A stretch of 63,989 nt of DNA, filler included, from Licmophora abbreviata (taxonomy: Eukaryota), in NCBI GenBank assembly GCA_900291995.1. It is 24 parts of 24 records of this genome, joined end to end, with 100 filler letters (N's around TTAATTAATTAA, not from the genome) between each part and the next. Parts side by side here need not be neighbours in the genome. Positions count along the whole stretch, not along the records: positions 32,765 to 39,561 come from OLMU01005891.1; 23 more parts are not named here. One strand, written 5' to 3'. Made by a program: the position numbers and the translations under genes. Positions 34,570-45,019 of this stretch are shown here, one piece after another; positions within the stretch are counted from its first letter, which is position 1; the number at the start of each line of letters is the position of its first letter. The notes under the pieces are model-generated. The model did no database searches, had not been told where the DNA came from, and was given only the letters and a program-made list of their open reading frames with translations.

Positions 34570-35091
34570 CTATCCTTCAAAGCCAATAACTCCTCCGACT
34601 CGCAGCATTTCTTCCACTTGACCCGGGAGATCGACCCCGGTCCAATACTCGGTCAAAAGTCCGACGGCAAGAAAGAACATGGCATAGCGTCCGTTATACG
34701 TTTCGGCTTGTCCTGTCCACCCCACCATTCGCGATTCCTCATATTCCTCTTCGACTCGTTCCTTTCGCCACTTTTCTTCCATCTTTCCCAGCGCAGTTAC
34801 CTGCGCGGCGAGTTCGATCTCGTTCAACACGATCTTTCCTGGGACATTCTCTGTGATCCAGTCATCGTCGCCGCCAAACTTTTCATCCCAATCAAAGTCA
34901 CCCTTCAATTCAGGGAGTTCAGGGCGATCTGGATTCATTTTTGGCTCATCGTCGTACGCCTTGGCAGCTTCCTTGACCTTATCTGAGTGAAGAACGACGG
35001 CCCTGCGGTTTGTGAATGCAGCCGGCGTCGAAAAGGCAGACGCGGCTCCTAGACACGCCGAAATTACAACTAACGACCTCAAGGATGGCAT
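34570..35091 (-). CDS. OHP2: Plastid one-helix LHC-like protein (OHP2/HLIP-type)
   Basis: Signal peptide with ASAFST; C-terminal GWTGQAETYNGRYAMFFLAVGLLTEYWTG chlorophyll-binding helix. Confidence 0.8.
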   Translation of the reverse strand: MPSLRSLVVISACLGAASAFSTPAAFTNRRAVVLHSDKVKEAAKAYDDEPKMNPDRPELPELKGDFDWDEKFGGDDDWITENVPGKIVLNEIELAAQVTALGKMEEKWRKERVEEEYEESRMVGWTGQAETYNGRYAMFFLAVGLLTEYWTGVDLPGQVEEMLRVGGVIGFEG

Positions 35092-35579: not shown

Positions 35580-37439
35580 TTAAAATGCCCAATCGTCCAA
35601 CTCGGACGTGTCGTCAAATGGAGGAGGGGGTGGCTCTGTGGCCTGCTCAATGGCTTGTTCAACAATATCTGGTACCGGTAGGCTTTCTGTCGGTTCGACA
35701 GGTATCTTGTTCGACGCTTGGAAGGCCTCACTAAGTTGGTGAATGATCGGTGCATCTTTGAGGGCTTCAAACAAAAACACTGCTGCCACCAGCAACACGA
35801 CAATCTTGATGAGATTCATTTCGGCTTCGTTGAATCCAACCATCCCTTTTTCCTCTTGAGACACAACCTCCGTTTGTCCAGACGACAGGTCACGAGTTGG
35901 AGCGGGGCTTCCCATGTTTTCAAGATAGCCCGTACCAACAGCGGCTGTCTTTGGCTTCCCTCTCGGGGGCTGCTTCTGCGCCGCTCCACCACCACTGAGT
36001 GCCGAGAGATAGTCTGTAGCAGCAGGAGTGCTTGTTGCTACAGCAGCCTTGGGCAGGTCGAAGTCGCGCACCGTCCCTCCCATGGCCGCAACAGTGGCAG
36101 CGGGAAGAGAAGCGTCTGCAGACGTCTCGATCGTCATTCCCATCAATCCAGAACCGAGAGAAGTCTCCTGCGCAGTCTTTGGAGTTCCCCGTGGAGGCAT
36201 CTTATTCACAGGCTCACTGCTCACTGCCGAAGCATAGCTTGCACCGGCAGGCGTGCTGGGAGCAGTGTACGGCGTTGGTCCTGGAGCTGTGGACCAAGCC
36301 GGAGTCGAAGAAGTGCCACTCATATTGTCGAGATAGCCCGTATTTCTCGTCGCCGTCTTTGGTTTGCCTCTCGGTGGCATCTTTTTCACAGGGCCACCGC
36401 CCAATGCGGAGAGATAGTCCAAACCAGCAGGACTGCTAGGCCCAGACGCCGGTGCCGACGATACGGCGGGGGCGACGTACGCTGGTGCGGCAGCAGTACT
36501 ACCCATGTTGTCAAGGTAGCCTCCTCCTTTCGTCGCTGTCTTTGGCTTGCCTCTTGGCGGCATCCTTTTCACAGGGCCGCCACCGAGCGCTGAAAGGTAG
36601 TCGGTTCCGGCAGAAGCGCTTCCGCTCGCCATCGGATTGATCGGTACGGCGGGTGGGACAAGGGGAGGCGGGGATACAGAAGCAATAGGCACTGTTGCAT
36701 CCTGAATACTCCGAGGAGGTGTTTCTGACAAAGCTGAGAACTCAGGAAGCGGAGAATTTTGAGGATCGACGAGAAACTCTCGTACGGACTGAGAGACACC
36801 TTGCAGGTACGACAAGTAATCCTTTGCCGATTGGACTGTCTCTTCCAGTTCCGCCAAGTAGCCAAGTGCCGGCGTGACTTGTGCGTCCGAGTATCCCTCC
36901 GGCACATGAGCAAGTTTGGACCGGACATCGCCGGCGACTTGCTCCAAATAATTCAGATAGTCCTGGGCCGCGGTGACCGCCTTTTCAATGTTCTCAAGAT
37001 ACTCCCGAATCTCAGCAGGGTCCCTAAAGTCTGGAAGATCAGAGCGCTTGCTACTCAATGATGGTCCACCCGACTGAGGACTGGTTTGTTCGAGGTCCTG
37101 CAAGTACGCTCTCACCACCGTAGCGACCTCCTCAAGGTATGCAAGATACTCCCTCGCAGTTTCGCCAGCCTCGACGATTTCCCCGAGGTACCCGTAGGCC
37201 AAGTTGAGACCGTCCCGCTCCATCATTGACAGCTGCTCCATATCCACGTCTGGCTGCACCCGCGAAGCAGCCGACACTAAAGTCTTTTTCAGAAGCTTGT
37301 AGTCCTGGGCTGGCTCGAGAAAGGCTGTCGCTGGTGTTCGAACACACGCCGGATGTCGCAGGACGAAAGCGGCTGTGCCACCCAGAGCGCAAATTAGAAG
37401 TATCGGTAAGGCTGTGGCCTTCGACATTATCTGCCTCAT
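35580..37439 (-). CDS. Predicted plastid-targeted repeat protein: Tyr-Leu helical repeats, disordered YLxxL/PPRGKPKTA repeats and a C-terminal TM (619 aa)
   Basis: Signal peptide with TAAFVL; three helical blocks (e.g. AAQDYLNYLEQV); four units related to DYLSALGGGPVKxMPPRGKPKTA...GYLDNM; TM LIKIVVLLVAAVFLFEAL. Confidence 0.85.
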   Translation of the reverse strand: MRQIMSKATALPILLICALGGTAAFVLRHPACVRTPATAFLEPAQDYKLLKKTLVSAASRVQPDVDMEQLSMMERDGLNLAYGYLGEIVEAGETAREYLAYLEEVATVVRAYLQDLEQTSPQSGGPSLSSKRSDLPDFRDPAEIREYLENIEKAVTAAQDYLNYLEQVAGDVRSKLAHVPEGYSDAQVTPALGYLAELEETVQSAKDYLSYLQGVSQSVREFLVDPQNSPLPEFSALSETPPRSIQDATVPIASVSPPPLVPPAVPINPMASGSASAGTDYLSALGGGPVKRMPPRGKPKTATKGGGYLDNMGSTAAAPAYVAPAVSSAPASGPSSPAGLDYLSALGGGPVKKMPPRGKPKTATRNTGYLDNMSGTSSTPAWSTAPGPTPYTAPSTPAGASYASAVSSEPVNKMPPRGTPKTAQETSLGSGLMGMTIETSADASLPAATVAAMGGTVRDFDLPKAAVATSTPAATDYLSALSGGGAAQKQPPRGKPKTAAVGTGYLENMGSPAPTRDLSSGQTEVVSQEEKGMVGFNEAEMNLIKIVVLLVAAVFLFEALKDAPIIHQLSEAFQASNKIPVEPTESLPVPDIVEQAIEQATEPPPPPFDDTSELDDWAF

Positions 37440-38224
37440 TCTGCACCAGTTCCGTTCACGTCCTTGTTAGAAAGACAAGGCAAAGATTCGACACAGACAC
37501 GCTCTTGGATGTTGAGAGGCGTCGAAAGCCGATCTATTTCGCTTTTGGATCTTTCACATCACTTGACACTCCATGAACTCTTCGTAGAAACCTACGTGAA
37601 GTTTGCTCTGTTTTGCTGATGGAAGTTCTAACGCGAAGGATGAGTTTGATGGCTCTAGTCTAGTCGAAGAAGTCAAAATCGGAAGAATGGACGGCCAGCG
37701 TCAAAGTACGTCACACAGCCCATAGCCTCAACAAATCTGGGCCATTCAATTCGTTCGCTCGTCTTCTTTTTCCGCCTGCTGCCCTGCCCCGAAAGACATC
37801 CCGAGTTGAACTTCAACGGCTCCATGATGCATTCCGACGTCAGATCTATGACCAGTGTCTCAAATCTTGATCATTAGATACGATAGCCGACAGAGTAAAT
37901 GGACCTCCGAGGCAACACTGTTGCCTATTGGAAGGGCTCTGCTAGCAGCCCCTTCACTCTCAAGGCCAGCAACCCATAGTATGATGCGACGAATAAGTTG
38001 CTAACTACCCTAACCTAGCCCGCTGGACCTTGTGTCTCTGTACGGAACCCGTTCCTAATGTTCAAAGAATGAATAGCAAAGTGCGTAACAAGACAGTGGT
38101 GTTTAGAGAGATTATCTCATTCACGTAGTGGCCTTATTGTTCTGTATGTGGTTTGATACGCAATATTCCGTGGGACAATGAGTAAAAAACATGAACAGAG
38201 AGATCTCTCTTCCTCCGTAAGCAT

Positions 38225-39385
38225 TTACGATTTTGACGCCCGCTCAAAGTACTCCAGGTAATCCTTAGCAGCCTTTGTTGCTCCCTCCAGGTAGTTCAAG
38301 TAGTCCTTGGCAGCGGTCGTTGCTTCCCGAAGGTAGCTGAGGTACTGGTCGGAACTAGCATCGCTCGAGATCGAGCCAGGAGAGAACGAAGCAGCGGGAG
38401 TGAAACCACCGGGAGTGGAGCCCTGGAAACCACCCGAGCTACGGCCGGACGTGTTGGCGTGGAGAGTGGAAGTGTATCCCTGGCTGGCGGCGCCGGTTCC
38501 TCGGACACTGTTTGCACCAAGGGTGGAAGTGTAACCCATCTGGCTAGCGCCGGTTCCTCGGACAGCGTTGGAGGCAAGGGTGGAAGTGTAGCCCATCTGG
38601 CTGGCGCCCGTTCCGCGGACAGCGTTGGTGCCAAGAGCGGAAAGGTAGTCGGCACCAGTTGGTGGGGCGGCAGACATGGGCGGAGCGGAGGAAGCTCCAA
38701 CTGGCGGGGGGCTGCTGACACTCGGAGGAGCAGCGCTGACTGGGGCAGCGGCGGCCGGGGGAGCACTGACGGCGCCGCCCTGGAATCCGCCGGACGAGGC
38801 TCCGGAAGGATTCGTCTTAAGGTTGGAAGTGTATCCCTGGTTGGCAACACCGGTGCCTCGGACAGCGTTGGCGGCAAGGGTGGAAGTGTATCCCATCTGG
38901 CTAGCACCAGTTCCTCGGACAGCGTTGGTTCCAAGAGTAGAGGTGTAGCCCATCTGGCTAGCGCCCGTTCCACGCACAGCGTTGGAGCCGAGAGCGGAAA
39001 GGTAGTCAGCACCGGACGGCGCGGCCGCAACAGGGGCAGCGGGGGCTGCGGCAGCCACCGGGGCAGCAGGGGCAGCGCTGAAGCTGGCGCCAGCGCCGTA
39101 GCCTGCACCACCGGCTGCTCCTCCGCCACCGGTCAAAACAGGGCGTCCATTGGTAACCGCAGTGAGATTGTCAAGGTATCCTGCGGGCGAATTACCAGCC
39201 TTGGGAATGGGCTTGGCGCCAGCTGGAGCGGAGCTAGTTGGCTGCGCGAGCTGATCGAGATATCCGGCCATTACAGTTCCGTCGGAGAAGACGATTGTAC
39301 GGACAAGCGAGGGACGCACCGGTCCAAAGGCATCTACGCCAGTGGCGGCAGCGAGAAAGAGGGCAGCGGCGGCGGAAACCTTCAT
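38225..39385 (-). CDS. Predicted plastid-targeted Ala/Gly/Ser-rich disordered repeat protein with Tyr motifs and a C-terminal amphipathic helix (386 aa)
   Basis: Signal peptide with VDAFGP; GYLDQL, GYLDNL and 2x DYLSAL; six 18-aa NAVRGTGASQMGYTSTL-type units; terminal YLSYLREATTAAKDYLNYLEGATKAAKDYLEYF. Confidence 0.88.
   Translation of the reverse strand: MKVSAAAALFLAAATGVDAFGPVRPSLVRTIVFSDGTVMAGYLDQLAQPTSSAPAGAKPIPKAGNSPAGYLDNLTAVTNGRPVLTGGGGAAGGAGYGAGASFSAAPAAPVAAAAPAAPVAAAPSGADYLSALGSNAVRGTGASQMGYTSTLGTNAVRGTGASQMGYTSTLAANAVRGTGVANQGYTSNLKTNPSGASSGGFQGGAVSAPPAAAAPVSAAPPSVSSPPPVGASSAPPMSAAPPTGADYLSALGTNAVRGTGASQMGYTSTLASNAVRGTGASQMGYTSTLGANSVRGTGAASQGYTSTLHANTSGRSSGGFQGSTPGGFTPAASFSPGSISSDASSDQYLSYLREATTAAKDYLNYLEGATKAAKDYLEYFERASKS
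38460..39010 (-). repeat. 54-bp coding tandem repeat in two blocks of three, within a larger internal duplication
   Basis: Units such as AACGCTGTCCGAGGAACCGGCGCTAGCCAGATGGGxTACACTTCCACCCTT on the minus strand. Confidence 0.9.
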
Positions 39386-40130
39386 GGTGGCGAGTCTTCT
39401 GATGTTCTTGATGGCGAGAAGTGCAAGGTAGCGAAACAGCGATCAAAGTACGTGCGTTGTGAAAAGAGCCATCACGCGTACGATGTCTTTCACACACGTC
39501 ACTTTCGTTGGCTACGTCGATTTCCTCGTAGAATCTACGTGAACTCTGGTACAAAGATTTCNNNNNNNNNNNNNNNNNNNNNNNNNNNNNNNNNNNNNNN
39601 NNNNNTTAATTAATTAANNNNNNNNNNNNNNNNNNNNNNNNNNNNNNNNNNNNNNNNNNNNGGCCTTTGTTTTGGGTCGGCGGAAATATTTATCCGCCCT
39701 CCTGGTGCATTAGGGAAGTCAATTCTACTGTACTCGCAGCTATCCAAACTACTGTGGTCTACCTTGACCCCTTGCACCGTACGACAAGTTTTGTTCGGCA
39801 TCATTGCGCCTTTGTTTGAATGTCGGGTTTCCTAATCCGAGAAGAAGCTACGTCATGCTAGCGTCATGAGACATTGAACAAGGTACGCACTTTGTACGTA
39901 GCAATCAGTATGATCTGTCGTAACGACGCCGGCTTTCTAATCTCGAGGTATTTCCACGGAGCTCAAACTCCATAAAAATGCGCGCCATGTCATTGCGATC
40001 GCGTTTTCCCGCGCCACGTACCGACGTGGCATGGCAAGTCATCATCCGCTTTCTAATGAGATCTCCACAAGTCCCACAATACGACCCCTTGCATCGCCAA
40101 TCAAGTCTTTTCTCTCTCTTTCCTTTCATC

Positions 40131-40563
40131 ATGACCCGCTCTCTCCTTCTCGCGACCCTCGCCGTCGCCCTTACAAGTGGCAATGCCTTTACAAGTGAGT
40201 TTCAAGTCGATCGGGGAGAATTCGAAGAAAATGGTCCAAAATCGAATTGAGAATCCCGCTAACTCAGTCTCGCCGTGTACTCGTACCCATAAAATTACAG
40301 TTTCCAAGCCTTCCGTGTCTCCTCGCACTGTGATTCGTATGTCGGAAGGTGACGAAGCACCTACGAACTTTGTCGAGCGCGGTGTCTCCGTGGATCAAGA
40401 CGGAAAGTCAAATGTGTGGGCGATTGAGCCCAAGGTTGAAGTCGAGAGCAAGAGCAACGAAGAGAAGACCACGAGTGCCTTGATAGCTGCTGGAGGTCTG
40501 GCTGGATTTGGAGCTGCGGCTGCCTTTCTCCTAACGAATTTGCCGGATCCGAACCAGTTCTAA
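40131..40563 (+). CDS. Small plastid-targeted single-TM protein, Psb34/Ssl1498-like; intron 40195-40300
   Basis: Signal peptide with GNAFT; VDQDGKSNVWAIEPKV followed by a single TM helix. Confidence 0.7.
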
Positions 40564-40844
40564 GAGTAGGAATGAACTGCGTCCTAGTCGACGAATTCAG
40601 AAATTTCGACGTCAAATCCCTATCCAATATTCGCCGCTCACTGCTCTGACACGACAATCGAACACAATTGCATCTGTACCCAGTAATCTATCGAGTAATA
40701 GAACGAAAATTACCAGCTAGCTACCGCGTCGGTCATCAGACTTACTGTCGCCACGCGCTTCAGAACCTCTACTCCTACTACAGTAGCCAAGCCATGCTAG
40801 TAGTAGTCCACTCTTCAGTCTTTTACCGGAGTGCAAAACAGAAA

Positions 40845-42421
40845 TCAATTTGCCTCGACCTTCTCCTTCTCTTCTGCCTTCGGGGCCTTGGCAAACCTGT
40901 ACACCATGAGAAGAGAGGACACTTTGAGTCATACAAGAGTCGATCATACGTCAGACGCAAAAGCCAGTGAAGTCCATTCTACTCACATTGTGGTGTACGG
41001 ATCGTACTCTTGCCCGTCCACTGCAATCTTGTTGTAGTGTTCCTGCAACGTCATGGTGCCAAACTTCTCTCCTGGGTCCGTCGTCAGCATGTCCTCCACC
41101 GCATAGTATTTTCCGATCCGACCGAGCTCGGCAGCATCCTCCAACTGTTCGCTGTTGAACGTATCGGCGAGCCATTGAAGAGAGTTGATGATTGTATCGA
41201 ACAGCCACAGCGGCGCATAGAAGAAGTTGGGCTCCTTTCCAACAGCGTCAAAAAGCATCTGCAAGGAAAGAAGAACCCGAGAAGAGATGTGTACACAAAC
41301 AAGTTGTCGTGAGTGGCATGCACGATTGATTTCACAATAATATTGGGAGGTACACGGACTCAGCATCATCGACAACCACAGCGACACGTAGTTCAAGTCA
41401 CACTCACTTCTCCTTGTTTCTTCATGGTCAGTGGCTCATCGGGACCTCCAAGATTGATTATTTGATTTTTGCGTTCCTTCAATCGACTGCTATCAATCAG
41501 AAACGTCGCCAGATCCGCCTCACTGATGGGATTGCATCGCGTCACTTCTCCATCACCAAACATTACAAAGGGCGCTCCCTGCTGAACGACTTCGAGTTGA
41601 CCCGACACTGACTTGAAGAACGCCGTTGGTCTGACGATAGTATAAGACATGTCCGACTGGCTCGTGAGTGCCTCTTCGAATTTGAGTTTGGCTTGCTGAA
41701 ATTGCAACCAGGGATTCTTGACACAGAATGCGGACAAGAGCACAAAGTGACGAGCCCCGACCGCGCGACCCGCTTCTAAACAATTCAAGGTGGCTTGATA
41801 GTCAATTGCATACGCGTCCTTCTTGACACCGCTTCTAGAAGCCAAACAGGAAATGATCGAATCAATCTTTTGCGAACTTGACAATTCTTTCAGTGCCTGG
41901 TGAGTATCGCGATAAATGTAGATGAATGTAGATAAGATGTGAGCAGTCGCATATTGGTGAACGTAGCGAATGACACAAAAATTCGAAAGGCGATCGTTCC
42001 ACACGCCTACGCCCGCCCCGCAAGATTTTATTGCACCCACCTCGGTCAGCTTCTGTGGGTCCGTCACATCACACTCTACAAGTCGCGCCCCGTCAAAGGA
42101 GGTTCCATACATGGCCTGGCCCTCGGTAGTCTCGACCTTGCTTTTATCTCGCACCAACGCAACCGTGTCGTATCCCTGTCGCACACTTTCTCGGACCACT
42201 GCCTTGCCAATATATCCTGTGGCCCCTGCAATCACGTTAATCTTGTTGGAATTTGCGCCCGCTGAAGCCATCATGGACAAGGACGACGCTGTCTTGGTCG
42301 AATGTGGTCGAACTACCGAAAAGGCGCGCGCGAACTGGATTTCCGATGGCAGGAGGCATAACAAAAGCAACGCAGCCGATGCCGACCACACATTCATACG
42401 TAGAGGCACTGACGTCTTCAT
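40845..42421 (-). CDS. DVR: NADPH-dependent 3,8-divinyl (proto)chlorophyllide a 8-vinyl reductase; four exons
   Basis: Signal peptide with [58 protein letters not shown] and [16 protein letters not shown] motifs. Confidence 0.92.
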
Positions 42422-43295
42422 TGTGCTGGGGAGCCAAACTTCAGGACTCTAAGAGGCACTCAAACAGATTGAAAGATGGAAACGACGACAACAACAGAGG
42501 TGCAAGCAAAAGAAGAAAAGATACGAAGTTGAAGTCCTTGCGTAGACGTTCGTACCGGTCTAGACGGTACGTACATCTCGCGTAAGACTCAGTACGGAGG
42601 AATATTGCGCGCCATGATACAATTTTCTGCGCGCATTTTGTCCGCTCAAGTTTCGATTTCAAGTTCAGTGTGGCCACACATTTGTCAGTGACCATGGGAA
42701 TTCGTCGAAGCATCGACAGGACAGAACATATGGGATATAAAATGACCTTCTGAACGTAAGAGGGGCCCATTGACGCAATGCTGAGACTTGAAGGGTGCGT
42801 AAAAGATCTGGGCGCTCTATCAAAGACTTGTTGTTGCAGTCGATACGTTCCGAACACTTCGTACCGGCCCACGGTATCATTAGCGCGATACTGTCTGCGA
42901 CTCCCATCTCAGGTGCGTTGGAACGACCTTTCACGACACGTGTCTAACGGGAGAGAGGATGATGATACTTCCAATGTAATAAATACACAATGATAGGTCA
43001 CCAGAAACTGGATTGGTGATAAGATCTATGGAGATTGACTCTCTCGGCGGCGGAGTCGCTTGTTTCTGGGTGTGACTAGAGACGCTCGAAAGCGACGAAT
43101 GGAANNNNNNNNNNNNNNNNNNNNNNNNNNNNNNNNNNNNNNNNNNNNTTAATTAATTAANNNNNNNNNNNNNNNNNNNNNNNNNNNNNNNNNNNNNNNN
43201 NNNNAGATGGTCCCCGTATTTTTTTTCTTGGGCTGCGGCCTGAGGGCCACAATAAGTCAGAAAATAAATTAAGTGAGAGTGAGACTCTCCCAGGA

Positions 43296-44624
43296 TCAGA
43301 TCTCGGAGATTGGAGGCCTGTCGACCAGTTCCTTGTCCCCCTCCCCGTTCCCCGCGCCGTCTCCGACGATGACGTCGAGCAGCTTTGACAGGCCTTTCTT
43401 ATCAGGCTTTACACTCTCCATGTATTCTTTAAGCATTGGCTTTTCTTCGGCAAGTCGCATTTCTGCCGATAAGTGCGGGTCCGTCGTTGCGAGATCTCGT
43501 AGCTCGCGCTCCGACAACAGCTGGCGACCACCCTCGCTCTTCATGGGCACAACAGTCCGCTTGGGCCACAAAAGTTCGTCTTCAATTGACTTTTTGATTC
43601 CATCCATTAGCTCGGAACGTAACCACGGGACCTTTGTGATTTCAGATCCAGCGACGCGAACGTCAAGTCCAATCTGGGGTACAGCTGGAAACGATACGAG
43701 CACGGCGCCAAAGCCAGGCGGTTCCGCCACCAAAGGCACAAGTCCAACACGGACGACGCCTCGAAACTGAACCTTTTGGATAGTAACAGGGATAGGAATG
43801 CCCAAGCGCCCCGTTCTGAGCTTGATTTTGGCAACCAGCTCACTTTCCCACTTTGTGTCGACGTCGAACGCCATAGCGTCATCTCCGACGTCGTAAATAC
43901 GGGCAGAGAGAAGCTCCGGCGCCTTGTTGCCAACGGAAAACTCATCGAGACTAAGCTTGCGAATGTTGGGGTTCTTGACGTCGCTCAGTACGTCCCGAAG
44001 ATTGTCTTCCAATTGCTTCGCGAGGCTATAGGGCAACAGATGATTGACGATGTACTGCAGTGGTAGCAAGCCCGGTGCCCCCACTGCAGCATAGTAGAAA
44101 TTAGCTTCCGCCTTGATTGTTTGCACCCCCTCAGCTGCTATCTTTCGAGTTTCCAACAAACTCGCTTTCAGAACCTTCCAACCATCTCTCCACTTCCATT
44201 TTCCGTCCATGCGTAGAGCCCGTCGCGCTTCTCCAACACCAGCTCGGAACACTCCCCAGACACGACCGGCAATCAGCTTAAAGATGGACCAAAGCTGCAA
44301 AAGGTTCTCTTTTCCGAGGGCAGTAACCGCTGTGACGGCGGCGACAGCTGTAGAAAAAAAGAGGCCGCCCAAGCAAAAGACAAACACGAGCTGGAAGAAA
44401 TTTCCAGGTGAAGCCGCTCCTCCAGTCTTCGCAACGGCAGCCGCGAGTGGTACTCGGGAATAAGGCGACACCATATTTAGAGGAGAGACGCCTGGACGAA
44501 AATGGACATGCGGTGGAAAAGGTGGAACGGTCCTTGGGAAGTGTGGCGGCAACAATGGTCGAAGTCGTGATGTCGACCGCCGCTGCGATCCCGTTTGGCG
44601 GGAGGATGCGGAGAGGAATGCCAT
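43296..44624 (-). CDS. SMP-domain (synaptotagmin-like lipid-transfer) membrane protein; start uncertain
   Basis: N-terminal TM, then LSLDEFSVGNKAP, FRGVVRVGLVPLVAEPPGFGAVLVSF, EITKVPWL and LLWPKR motifs. Confidence 0.8.
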   Translation of the reverse strand: MAFLSASSRQTGSQRRSTSRLRPLLPPHFPRTVPPFPPHVHFRPGVSPLNMVSPYSRVPLAAAVAKTGGAASPGNFFQLVFVFCLGGLFFSTAVAAVTAVTALGKENLLQLWSIFKLIAGRVWGVFRAGVGEARRALRMDGKWKWRDGWKVLKASLLETRKIAAEGVQTIKAEANFYYAAVGAPGLLPLQYIVNHLLPYSLAKQLEDNLRDVLSDVKNPNIRKLSLDEFSVGNKAPELLSARIYDVGDDAMAFDVDTKWESELVAKIKLRTGRLGIPIPVTIQKVQFRGVVRVGLVPLVAEPPGFGAVLVSFPAVPQIGLDVRVAGSEITKVPWLRSELMDGIKKSIEDELLWPKRTVVPMKSEGGRQLLSERELRDLATTDPHLSAEMRLAEEKPMLKEYMESVKPDKKGLSKLLDVIVGDGAGNGEGDKELVDRPPISEI

Positions 44625-45019
44625 GCTGCGGTGATCAGCGGCAAGAACTCGAAGTGCTGTAGATGACCCCTTTGGAAATTTCACAGTCCTTTTTACCAAT
44701 CCCAAGTGAGGTGGTCTGGTGGAAGAAGTTGATGTTGTTACAAAGCACACCCAAAAAGTCTTTGCATCACACACTCGCCACGTGTTGAAATTGGCGAGCG
44801 ACAGAATACATCGAATGGATCGCTCAAAATGTGAGGGAATATTTTGCGTTTTGGCAAATGTCATGACATATTTTTCGCGCGCGCCAACACTTGTAATGCA
44901 GCGTTCACAACTAAATTCCCGCATCGAAAAATTGGGGACCACAACATCACAACATTCAGCATGACTACCGGGTCTGCTTCTGTGGCTTCTCTTTTTAACA
45001 GCAGGAAATCAGAACAAGC

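Follow-up and report, generated by a model that had tools for sequence, protein, structure and literature searches.

A soluble and a membrane-anchored DPC2-like repeat protein encoded by adjacent genes in the diatom Licmophora abbreviata

Introduction

How Rubisco is condensed and attached to thylakoids is an open question in most diatoms, and here we describe, as a testable lead, two adjacent genes of the diatom Licmophora abbreviata (GCA_900291995.1) whose products, P0001 and P0002, share a short tyrosine motif, Y[LT]xx[LM], one protein being soluble and the other predicted to be membrane-anchored. The genes lie in a 63,989-nucleotide stretch of nuclear DNA (the window), which was made of joined contigs, so that gene order across its gaps depends on scaffolding.

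Among described systems, DPC2 of Thalassiosira pseudonana is located only in the pyrenoid matrix, interacts with Rubisco and forms a network hub, according to the available text of Nam et al. (10.1101/2023.10.26.564148). PYCO1 is poorly conserved, and in the same text no linker was found in T. pseudonana, DPC2 being named as a prime candidate. PYCO1 (Phatr3_J49957) is the Rubisco linker of Phaeodactylum; it carries KWSP and GTGYNP stickers, and its Tyr motifs drive self-condensation (PMC10288592, available parts). A review of 2026 (PMC13655443) presents PYCO1 as the diatom linker, and DPC proteins are mentioned neither in its available portions nor in those of a proteomics preprint (10.1101/2025.06.11.659125). 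In the literature searched, DPC2 was named in a single paper and a YLxxL pyrenoid motif was described in none, most subscription papers and bioRxiv supplements lying outside that search.

The Licmophora genes form a real, conserved pair, which is a new version of a known, uncharacterised DPC2-like kind. Judged by sequence, their closest known relative is DPC2 and not PYCO1, and the pair appears to be best explained as a branch, confined to a lineage, of the large YLxxL (DPC2-like) group of proteins. Both proteins are plausible organisers of the CO2-fixing compartment.

The gene pair and its shared motifs

P0001 (gene 1, 386 aa) and P0002 (gene 2, 619 aa) are encoded by uninterrupted open reading frames at 38225-39385 and 35580-37439, both on the minus strand and 785 bp apart. 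The adjacency is real because both genes lie on a single contig (G000:C5891), and an earlier sequence-only reading was right to describe two adjacent, co-oriented genes. Upstream of gene 1, an assembly gap begins after about 180 bp. The assembly (29 Mb, 7734 contigs) contains plastid rbcL and rbcS of the red type, together with eight PyShell matches. The parts of the pair are listed below by window position.

38225..39385, minus: gene 1, P0001, soluble; Y[LT]xx[LM] present ten times, putative helix at the C-terminus (reading frame, counts; orthologues P0003, P0072, P0154)
39326..39385, minus: signal peptide with Phe at +1, VDA-F (read from the sequence; AEA-F in orthologue P0003)
39164..39265, minus: N-terminal motifs GYLDQL (residues 41-46) and GYLDNL (69-74), the YL positions of both invariant in alignment A1
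38810..39013, minus: repeat block 1 (residues 125-192), DYLSAL and three units of 19 aa, each with GYTS.L at its end (GYTSTL aligned with GYLGSL/GYLDNL in P0154)
38453..38656, minus: repeat block 2 (residues 244-311), 58 of its 68 residues the same as in block 1
38234..38356, minus: putative C-terminal amphipathic helix (residues 344-384), three YLxY[LF] units with a 14-residue period (suggested by the period and by resemblance to the P0002 domain)
35580..37439, minus: gene 2, P0002, with helical domain, paired-motif modules, one transmembrane segment and acidic tail (reading frame, counts; relatives P0009, P0011/P0026, P0028)
37365..37439, minus: signal peptide with Phe at +1, TAA-F (paralogues on contigs C5630 and C1170/C1171 also Ala-Phe)
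36726..37226, minus: predicted helical domain (residues 72-238), three long helices of YLxYL repeats (AlphaFold2)
36492..36620, minus: module 1, DYLSAL, basic PPRGKPK spacer and GYLDNM (within the PF25195 match, residues 276-378)
36309..36437, minus: module 2 (module alignment, codon comparison)
36171..36242, minus: degenerate module, PPRGTPKTA kept and YL motifs decayed (sequence, counts)
35901..36032, minus: module 3 (module alignment)
35760..35816, minus: single predicted transmembrane segment (residues 542-560; Kyte-Doolittle 2.36; P0009 and P0026 also hydrophobic at the corresponding position)
35583..35759, minus: acidic tail rich in Pro, with D.WAF at its end (this end common to P0002, P0009 and P0026)

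The motif DYLSALG occurs twice in each protein, a third copy in P0002 reading DYLSALS, and GYLDN[LM] occurs once in P0001 (beside GYLDQL) and twice in P0002 (beside GYLENM). P0001 further contains six N[AS]VRGTG....GYTS.L units and P0002 four PPRG[KT]PKTA units, as had been read from the sequence alone; not one of these motif counts was reached in any of 2000 shuffles. The window contains 16 occurrences of a pattern that covers both motif kinds, and every one of them falls within these two of its 521 stop-to-stop frames (58,639 aa). Tyrosines fall largely inside Y[LTMV]xx[LMVI] (12 of 17 and 16 of 22 in the two proteins). The combined Ala, Gly, Ser and Pro content, which the sequence-only reading had called high, is 54.9% in P0001 and 40.7% in P0002, and P0001 has no Trp and no Cys. 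Single stickers are 19-34 residues apart, while modules 1 and 2 of P0002 repeat at 61 residues and the P0001 blocks at 119.

Repeat copies differ chiefly at third codon positions. Modules 1 and 2 of P0002 show 14 synonymous and 4 non-synonymous codon differences, and the duplicated halves of P0001 show 16 versus 10; the synonymous excess therefore means that the repeats are constrained as protein, and purifying selection on the repeats of both proteins is shown by these data. Chance or a non-coding repeat as the origin of the motifs was ruled out by the shuffles, the frame scan and this excess.

A second shared element and the predicted folds

The two proteins share a second element, overlooked by the sequence-only reading: a YLxYL helix repeat with a period of 14 residues. 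The best BLASTP segment between P0001 and P0002 (E 5e-7) falls in it. Its single C-terminal copy in P0001 is the part of that protein best conserved in all three orthologues. Hydrophobic moments of the helix repeats are 0.49-0.60, and all YL elements are amphipathic. For residues 62-240 of P0002, AlphaFold2 run with 5 sequences predicted three long helices at moderate confidence (mean pLDDT 65, pTM 0.51), so the earlier view that P0002 is disordered throughout does not hold for residues ~72-238, which are predicted to be helical. Foldseek with this domain returned generic bundles only, none at E<=0.001. In architecture the proteins resemble a Rubisco linker in having several conserved stickers in repeats whose composition suggests disorder, in P0002 only from residue ~240.

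By Kyte-Doolittle hydropathy, P0001 has no hydrophobic segment beyond its signal peptide and P0002 has one near its C-terminus (542-560), in agreement with the earlier assignment of no transmembrane segment to the 386-aa protein and one to the 619-aa protein. The sequence after this segment is acidic in all three full-tail sequences. Matches of P0001 to DUF7640 (E 0.002 and 0.0007, below the cut-off) were taken as chance.

Orthologues, paralogues and the spread of the module

P0003, P0072 and P0154 are orthologue-like sequences of P0001, and the Tyr motifs, on whose conservation the sequence-only reading depended, are kept in the orthologues. The GYTSTL positions correspond to GYLGSL and GYLDNL in P0154, which marks the six 19-aa units as forms of the same YL motif. 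P0009 and P0011/P0026 retain the helical domain of P0002, YL motifs, a transmembrane segment and the D.WAF end, and P0028 retains the helical domain. There was no usable match for P0001 or P0002 in the ESM Atlas and none in NCBIfam, and PDB sequence searches with alignments A1, A5 and A8 gave nothing below E 0.05.

Three further Licmophora genes, on contigs C5630, C1170 and C3225, carry the paired-motif module, giving 14 copies with the three in the window; helical repeats are present in two of these paralogues and a transmembrane segment in one. The modules are shuffled among five genes on four contigs, and 13 of the 15 genome-wide matches to the pattern G-Y-L-D-N lie in these five genes (6 matches for the reversed control).

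This shuffling bears on the possibility that the motif is a mere address tag or a module-shuffling relic, and that the neighbours are kin with separate roles rather than a linker-plus-tether system. Their spacers are wholly different, and the BLASTP link between them runs mainly through the helix. Metagenome scans could not show conserved adjacency: of 597 and of 210 candidate stretches, none was confirmed. In P0010 and P0013, from other species, a PPRGKPK-type module stands between lipoyl-like segments, an arrangement that would fit an address tag without pointing to the pyrenoid specifically. With ten and six stickers and selection on every copy, however, multivalent binding fits better than a single tag, and we regard the tag or relic as very improbable.

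On C1170 a frame change near the 5' part (~1745-1845), with the signal peptide on the next contig, C1171, reflects an intron or an assembly error. On C5630 (3-2867, 3832-6999, 7827-9443) the gene 2 paralogue stands between two low-complexity genes with signal peptide and Phe, one with many SSYGMNGD repeats and neither with a Pfam match. A lipoyl-like gene of Licmophora itself (C6221, L122) is cut off by the contig end.

Relationship to DPC2

In what follows DPC2 denotes the Pfam model PF25195, whose link to the T. pseudonana protein rests on Pfam naming. P0002 matches this model at E 1.3e-6 (29.2 bits; gathering cut-off 70 bits) and the paralogue on C5630 at 50.7 bits, and none of six unrelated control frames, mostly of low complexity, matches it. 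Four of the five P0001 homologues, the more distant four, also match. A profile of P0001 and its five homologues matched 163 proteins among 1.84 billion; 150 of these were listed and 147 were new, and among the new relatives listed 111 match DPC2 at E<=0.001, 21 of them above the cut-off, with SYLDAL and GYLDAL as the commonest motifs. In these 21 members, 237 of 374 tyrosines fall within Y[LTMV]xx[LMVI].

A profile-profile comparison of the P0001 family, weighted towards P0004-P0007, with 24 DPC2-type sequences gave a probability of 99.4 and E 6e-22. When each protein was scored alone against a hidden Markov model (HMM) of these 24 sequences, P0002 reached 38.8 bits and P0001 15.6 bits, compared with maxima of 5.9 and 1.8 in 400 shuffles each.

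The likeness to DPC2 consists of a putative signal peptide with Phe, many Y[LM]xx[LVI] motifs, profile similarity and the existence of membrane-bound members; repeated YLxx[LVIM] motifs in Gly/Ala/Ser spacers, a DPC2 trait, are present in both window proteins. The window proteins differ in their scores (29 bits and no match, against 70), in position -1 of the motif (Gly or Asp here, Ser in DPC2) and in three additional elements, namely the helix domain with YLxYL, the basic spacer PPRGKPK and the transmembrane segment with its D.WAF tail. When the DPC2-type protein P0048 was modelled, confidence was highest in its Cys-hairpin regions (10-residue pLDDT 65-93), and many of the remaining YL motifs appeared as isolated short helices with lower scores, as would be expected of linear motifs.

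Comparison with known linkers

The sequence-only reading took PYCO1 and EPYC1 as comparators, and DPC2 fits better by Pfam and profile similarity. Its statement that KWSP is absent was correct: neither KWSP nor GTGYNP occurs in P0001 or P0002, and the KWSPRGG pattern has no match genome-wide. Compared by motifs and description rather than by alignment, PYCO1 is plastid-targeted, as the pair probably is, and resembles it as a low-complexity repeat protein with aromatic stickers. It differs in having KWSP and GTGYNP, whereas P0001 lacks Trp, the stickers of the pair are closer than the ~80-aa repeats of PYCO1, and P0002, which is acidic and predicted to be folded in part, has a transmembrane segment.

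The Rubisco-binding motif of Chlamydomonas is Trp-based. As far as the available sources describe it, one short motif is present there on the soluble linker EPYC1 and on membrane proteins such as BST4, as in our pair, but Chlamydomonas Rubisco is of the green type and the likeness is an analogy only.

A genome search with PF25195 gave only one sub-threshold match, the C5630 paralogue, and a P0048 query gave none. Genome-wide, the YLDAL and [ST]YL patterns gave no more matches than their controls (3 versus 6 and 28 versus 52), and none of the 33 loci checked had a motif-rich frame. PYCO1 and DPC2-proper were thus not found with these queries, which is weak evidence in an assembly of so many contigs. 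These absences are compatible with the five-gene family taking the place of DPC2 or PYCO1, and another linker may be needed, since KWSPRGG and DPC2-proper were not found in this way.

Targeting

Read by eye and hydropathy, both proteins begin with a signal peptide followed by Phe at +1, as in the AF-type start proposed earlier (VDA-F, TAA-F). A regular expression for such starts matched P0002 and not P0001, whose Val at -3 is outside its class. Both proteins are nucleus-encoded and probably located in the chloroplast.

An alternative is that they are secreted, periplastid or endoplasmic reticulum proteins. P0001 would then be the soluble counterpart of P0002, a type-I mucin-like membrane protein with its acidic-aromatic C-terminus as a trafficking signal. 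The signal peptide, the Ser/Thr/Pro/Ala richness, the lone C-terminal transmembrane segment and the conserved D.WAF end would suit such proteins, and in many relatives the first YL motif directly follows the signal peptide (positions 18-25), leaving little space for a transit peptide. However, Phe at +1 recurs in both genes, their orthologues and paralogues, of the 92 relatives whose N-terminus is hydrophobic 77 have an AxA-[FWYL] site (a heuristic without background rate), and the similarity is to a pyrenoid protein family. We consider the secretory alternative improbable.

The motif on other membrane and pyrenoid proteins

Soluble and membrane-bound carriers of the motif exist elsewhere. The DPC2 members P0115 and P0171 have an apparent N-terminal hydrophobic segment, and in P0151 (1436 aa) a bestrophin domain (213 bits) is fused with multiple DPC2 repeats, which score 315 bits, and with a coiled-coil-like tail, echoing BST4. 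A bestrophin tail targets to the pyrenoid, and no motif was found in it, according to the available text of Nigishi et al. (PMC11142338). Model diatoms are reported to have 2-4 bestrophin isoforms. Our PF25539 search gave 37 bestrophin matches on ~24 contigs, a count inflated by exon splitting, which suggests a larger family here.

At one of the eight PyShell loci, the N-terminal arm contains SYLTNM (C5674, L041, 3-521, minus), a weak observation with a loose pattern. An unmodelled short helix is described in the arm of TpPyShell1 (Shimakawa et al., 10.1101/2023.10.25.564039, available part). The PyShell domain (PF25192) has no Pfam match in P0001 or P0002, the PyShell genes lying elsewhere in the genome. 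Among other YL-repeat proteins, P0079, P0163 and P0132 carry I29-like (cathepsin propeptide) or HbpS-like domains.

In another explanation, the pair would be scaffolds that lie in the plastid but outside the pyrenoid, with YL helices that self-associate or lie on membranes and basic spacers that bind anionic lipid or nucleoid DNA, and the result would be thylakoid shaping or a stromal network unrelated to Rubisco. The amphipathicity of every YL element, the size and diversity of the group, the position among other photosynthesis-type genes (with a Psb34-like match across a gap) and the lack of a motif at the bestrophin loci of Licmophora (a YL tail at 0 of 15 loci examined, of the 37 matches) are in its favour. 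Against this, the sole localised relative, DPC2, is exclusively pyrenoidal in the available text, and the motif is limited to few genes here, as the genome-wide scan above indicated. This explanation is fairly unlikely.

A proposed scaffold and its tether

Our favoured interpretation, for which the chances of being right or wrong seem to us evenly balanced, is that P0001 is a multivalent pyrenoid scaffold and P0002 a thylakoid tether. Both would be imported into the plastid. Each Y[LT]xx[LM] would form a short amphipathic helix binding the pyrenoid matrix, most likely Rubisco or else another matrix scaffold. P0001, with ten stickers mostly 19 residues apart, would be a soluble cross-linker that may oligomerise through its C-terminal helix. 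P0002, which combines three sticker pairs and basic spacers with a putative three-helix bundle, would be anchored by its transmembrane segment with the stickers in the stroma, an orientation suggested by the acidic sequence after the segment, and would tie the matrix to the thylakoid. The shared YLxYL helix would be a second possible route of association between the two. Direct binding to Rubisco within this model is less probable than the model itself. The pyrenoid linker and tether of the sequence-only reading survive in part: similarity to DPC2 and the soluble and membrane carriers elsewhere support the idea, its comparator was wrong, and one domain is predicted to be folded.

Several findings weigh against the scaffold and tether. 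P0001 alone has no PF25195 match, BLASTP of P0001 against P0048 and P0151 and of P0002 against P0048 found no match, and the link of P0001 to DPC2 is transitive and could be convergence at the level of motifs. The Cys-pair helical core, scored by a regular expression drawn from alignment A5, is absent from P0001 and P0002, compared with its presence in 14 of the 21 members over the cut-off; since both proteins are below the cut-off and lack this core, they are DPC2-like and not members. The DPC2-like group has at least five C-terminal classes, and DPC2 itself is its only localised member. With a spacing of 19-27 aa the stickers are closer than the ~60 aa expected of a linker in the available text of Nam et al., a value that the 61-residue repeat of P0002 modules 1 and 2 does approach, and P0002 is net acidic (47 K+R versus 68 D+E), whereas PYCO1 is basic. 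The P0151 fusion is one sequence on one 4,664-bp contig, and YL repeats also occur on the HbpS-like protein P0132; the bestrophin loci and the modules beside lipoyl-like segments count on the same side.

A broader proposal would make Y[LT]xx[LM] a diatom-wide pyrenoid motif, present on DPC2, a bestrophin tail, anchored scaffolds and perhaps the PyShell arm, and the red-lineage counterpart of the Rubisco-binding motif of Chlamydomonas; in this diatom, where neither PYCO1 nor DPC2-proper was found, P0001 would then be the Rubisco linker, made hypervalent by helix trimerisation, and P0002 would tie the matrix to the pyrenoid-penetrating thylakoid. We think this rather unlikely. A five-residue motif is common to DPC2-family proteins, a bestrophin fusion and this soluble and anchored pair. 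Should this motif bind Rubisco, it would amount to an assembly code general to diatom pyrenoids and could be used as an engineering part.

Neighbouring sequences

CO2-responsive TGACG[TC] elements (three upstream of gene 2, one of gene 1) were rejected as evidence, since the window contains 72 compared with 76.4 expected. At 39562-39661 a short TTAA linker between N-runs stops every frame. Beyond the gap, at 40130-44924, several genes of plastid type stand in a row: one is Psb34-like (NF033486, E 2.8e-4, under the cut-off), one encodes an NAD(P)-binding protein, and a further one is also of plastid type. On the other side of the pair, at 34570-35091 (minus), a 173-aa gene product has a signal peptide with Phe and no Pfam or NCBIfam match; it contains an ExxNGRxAM-like stretch, which we take to be typical of light-harvesting-like proteins.

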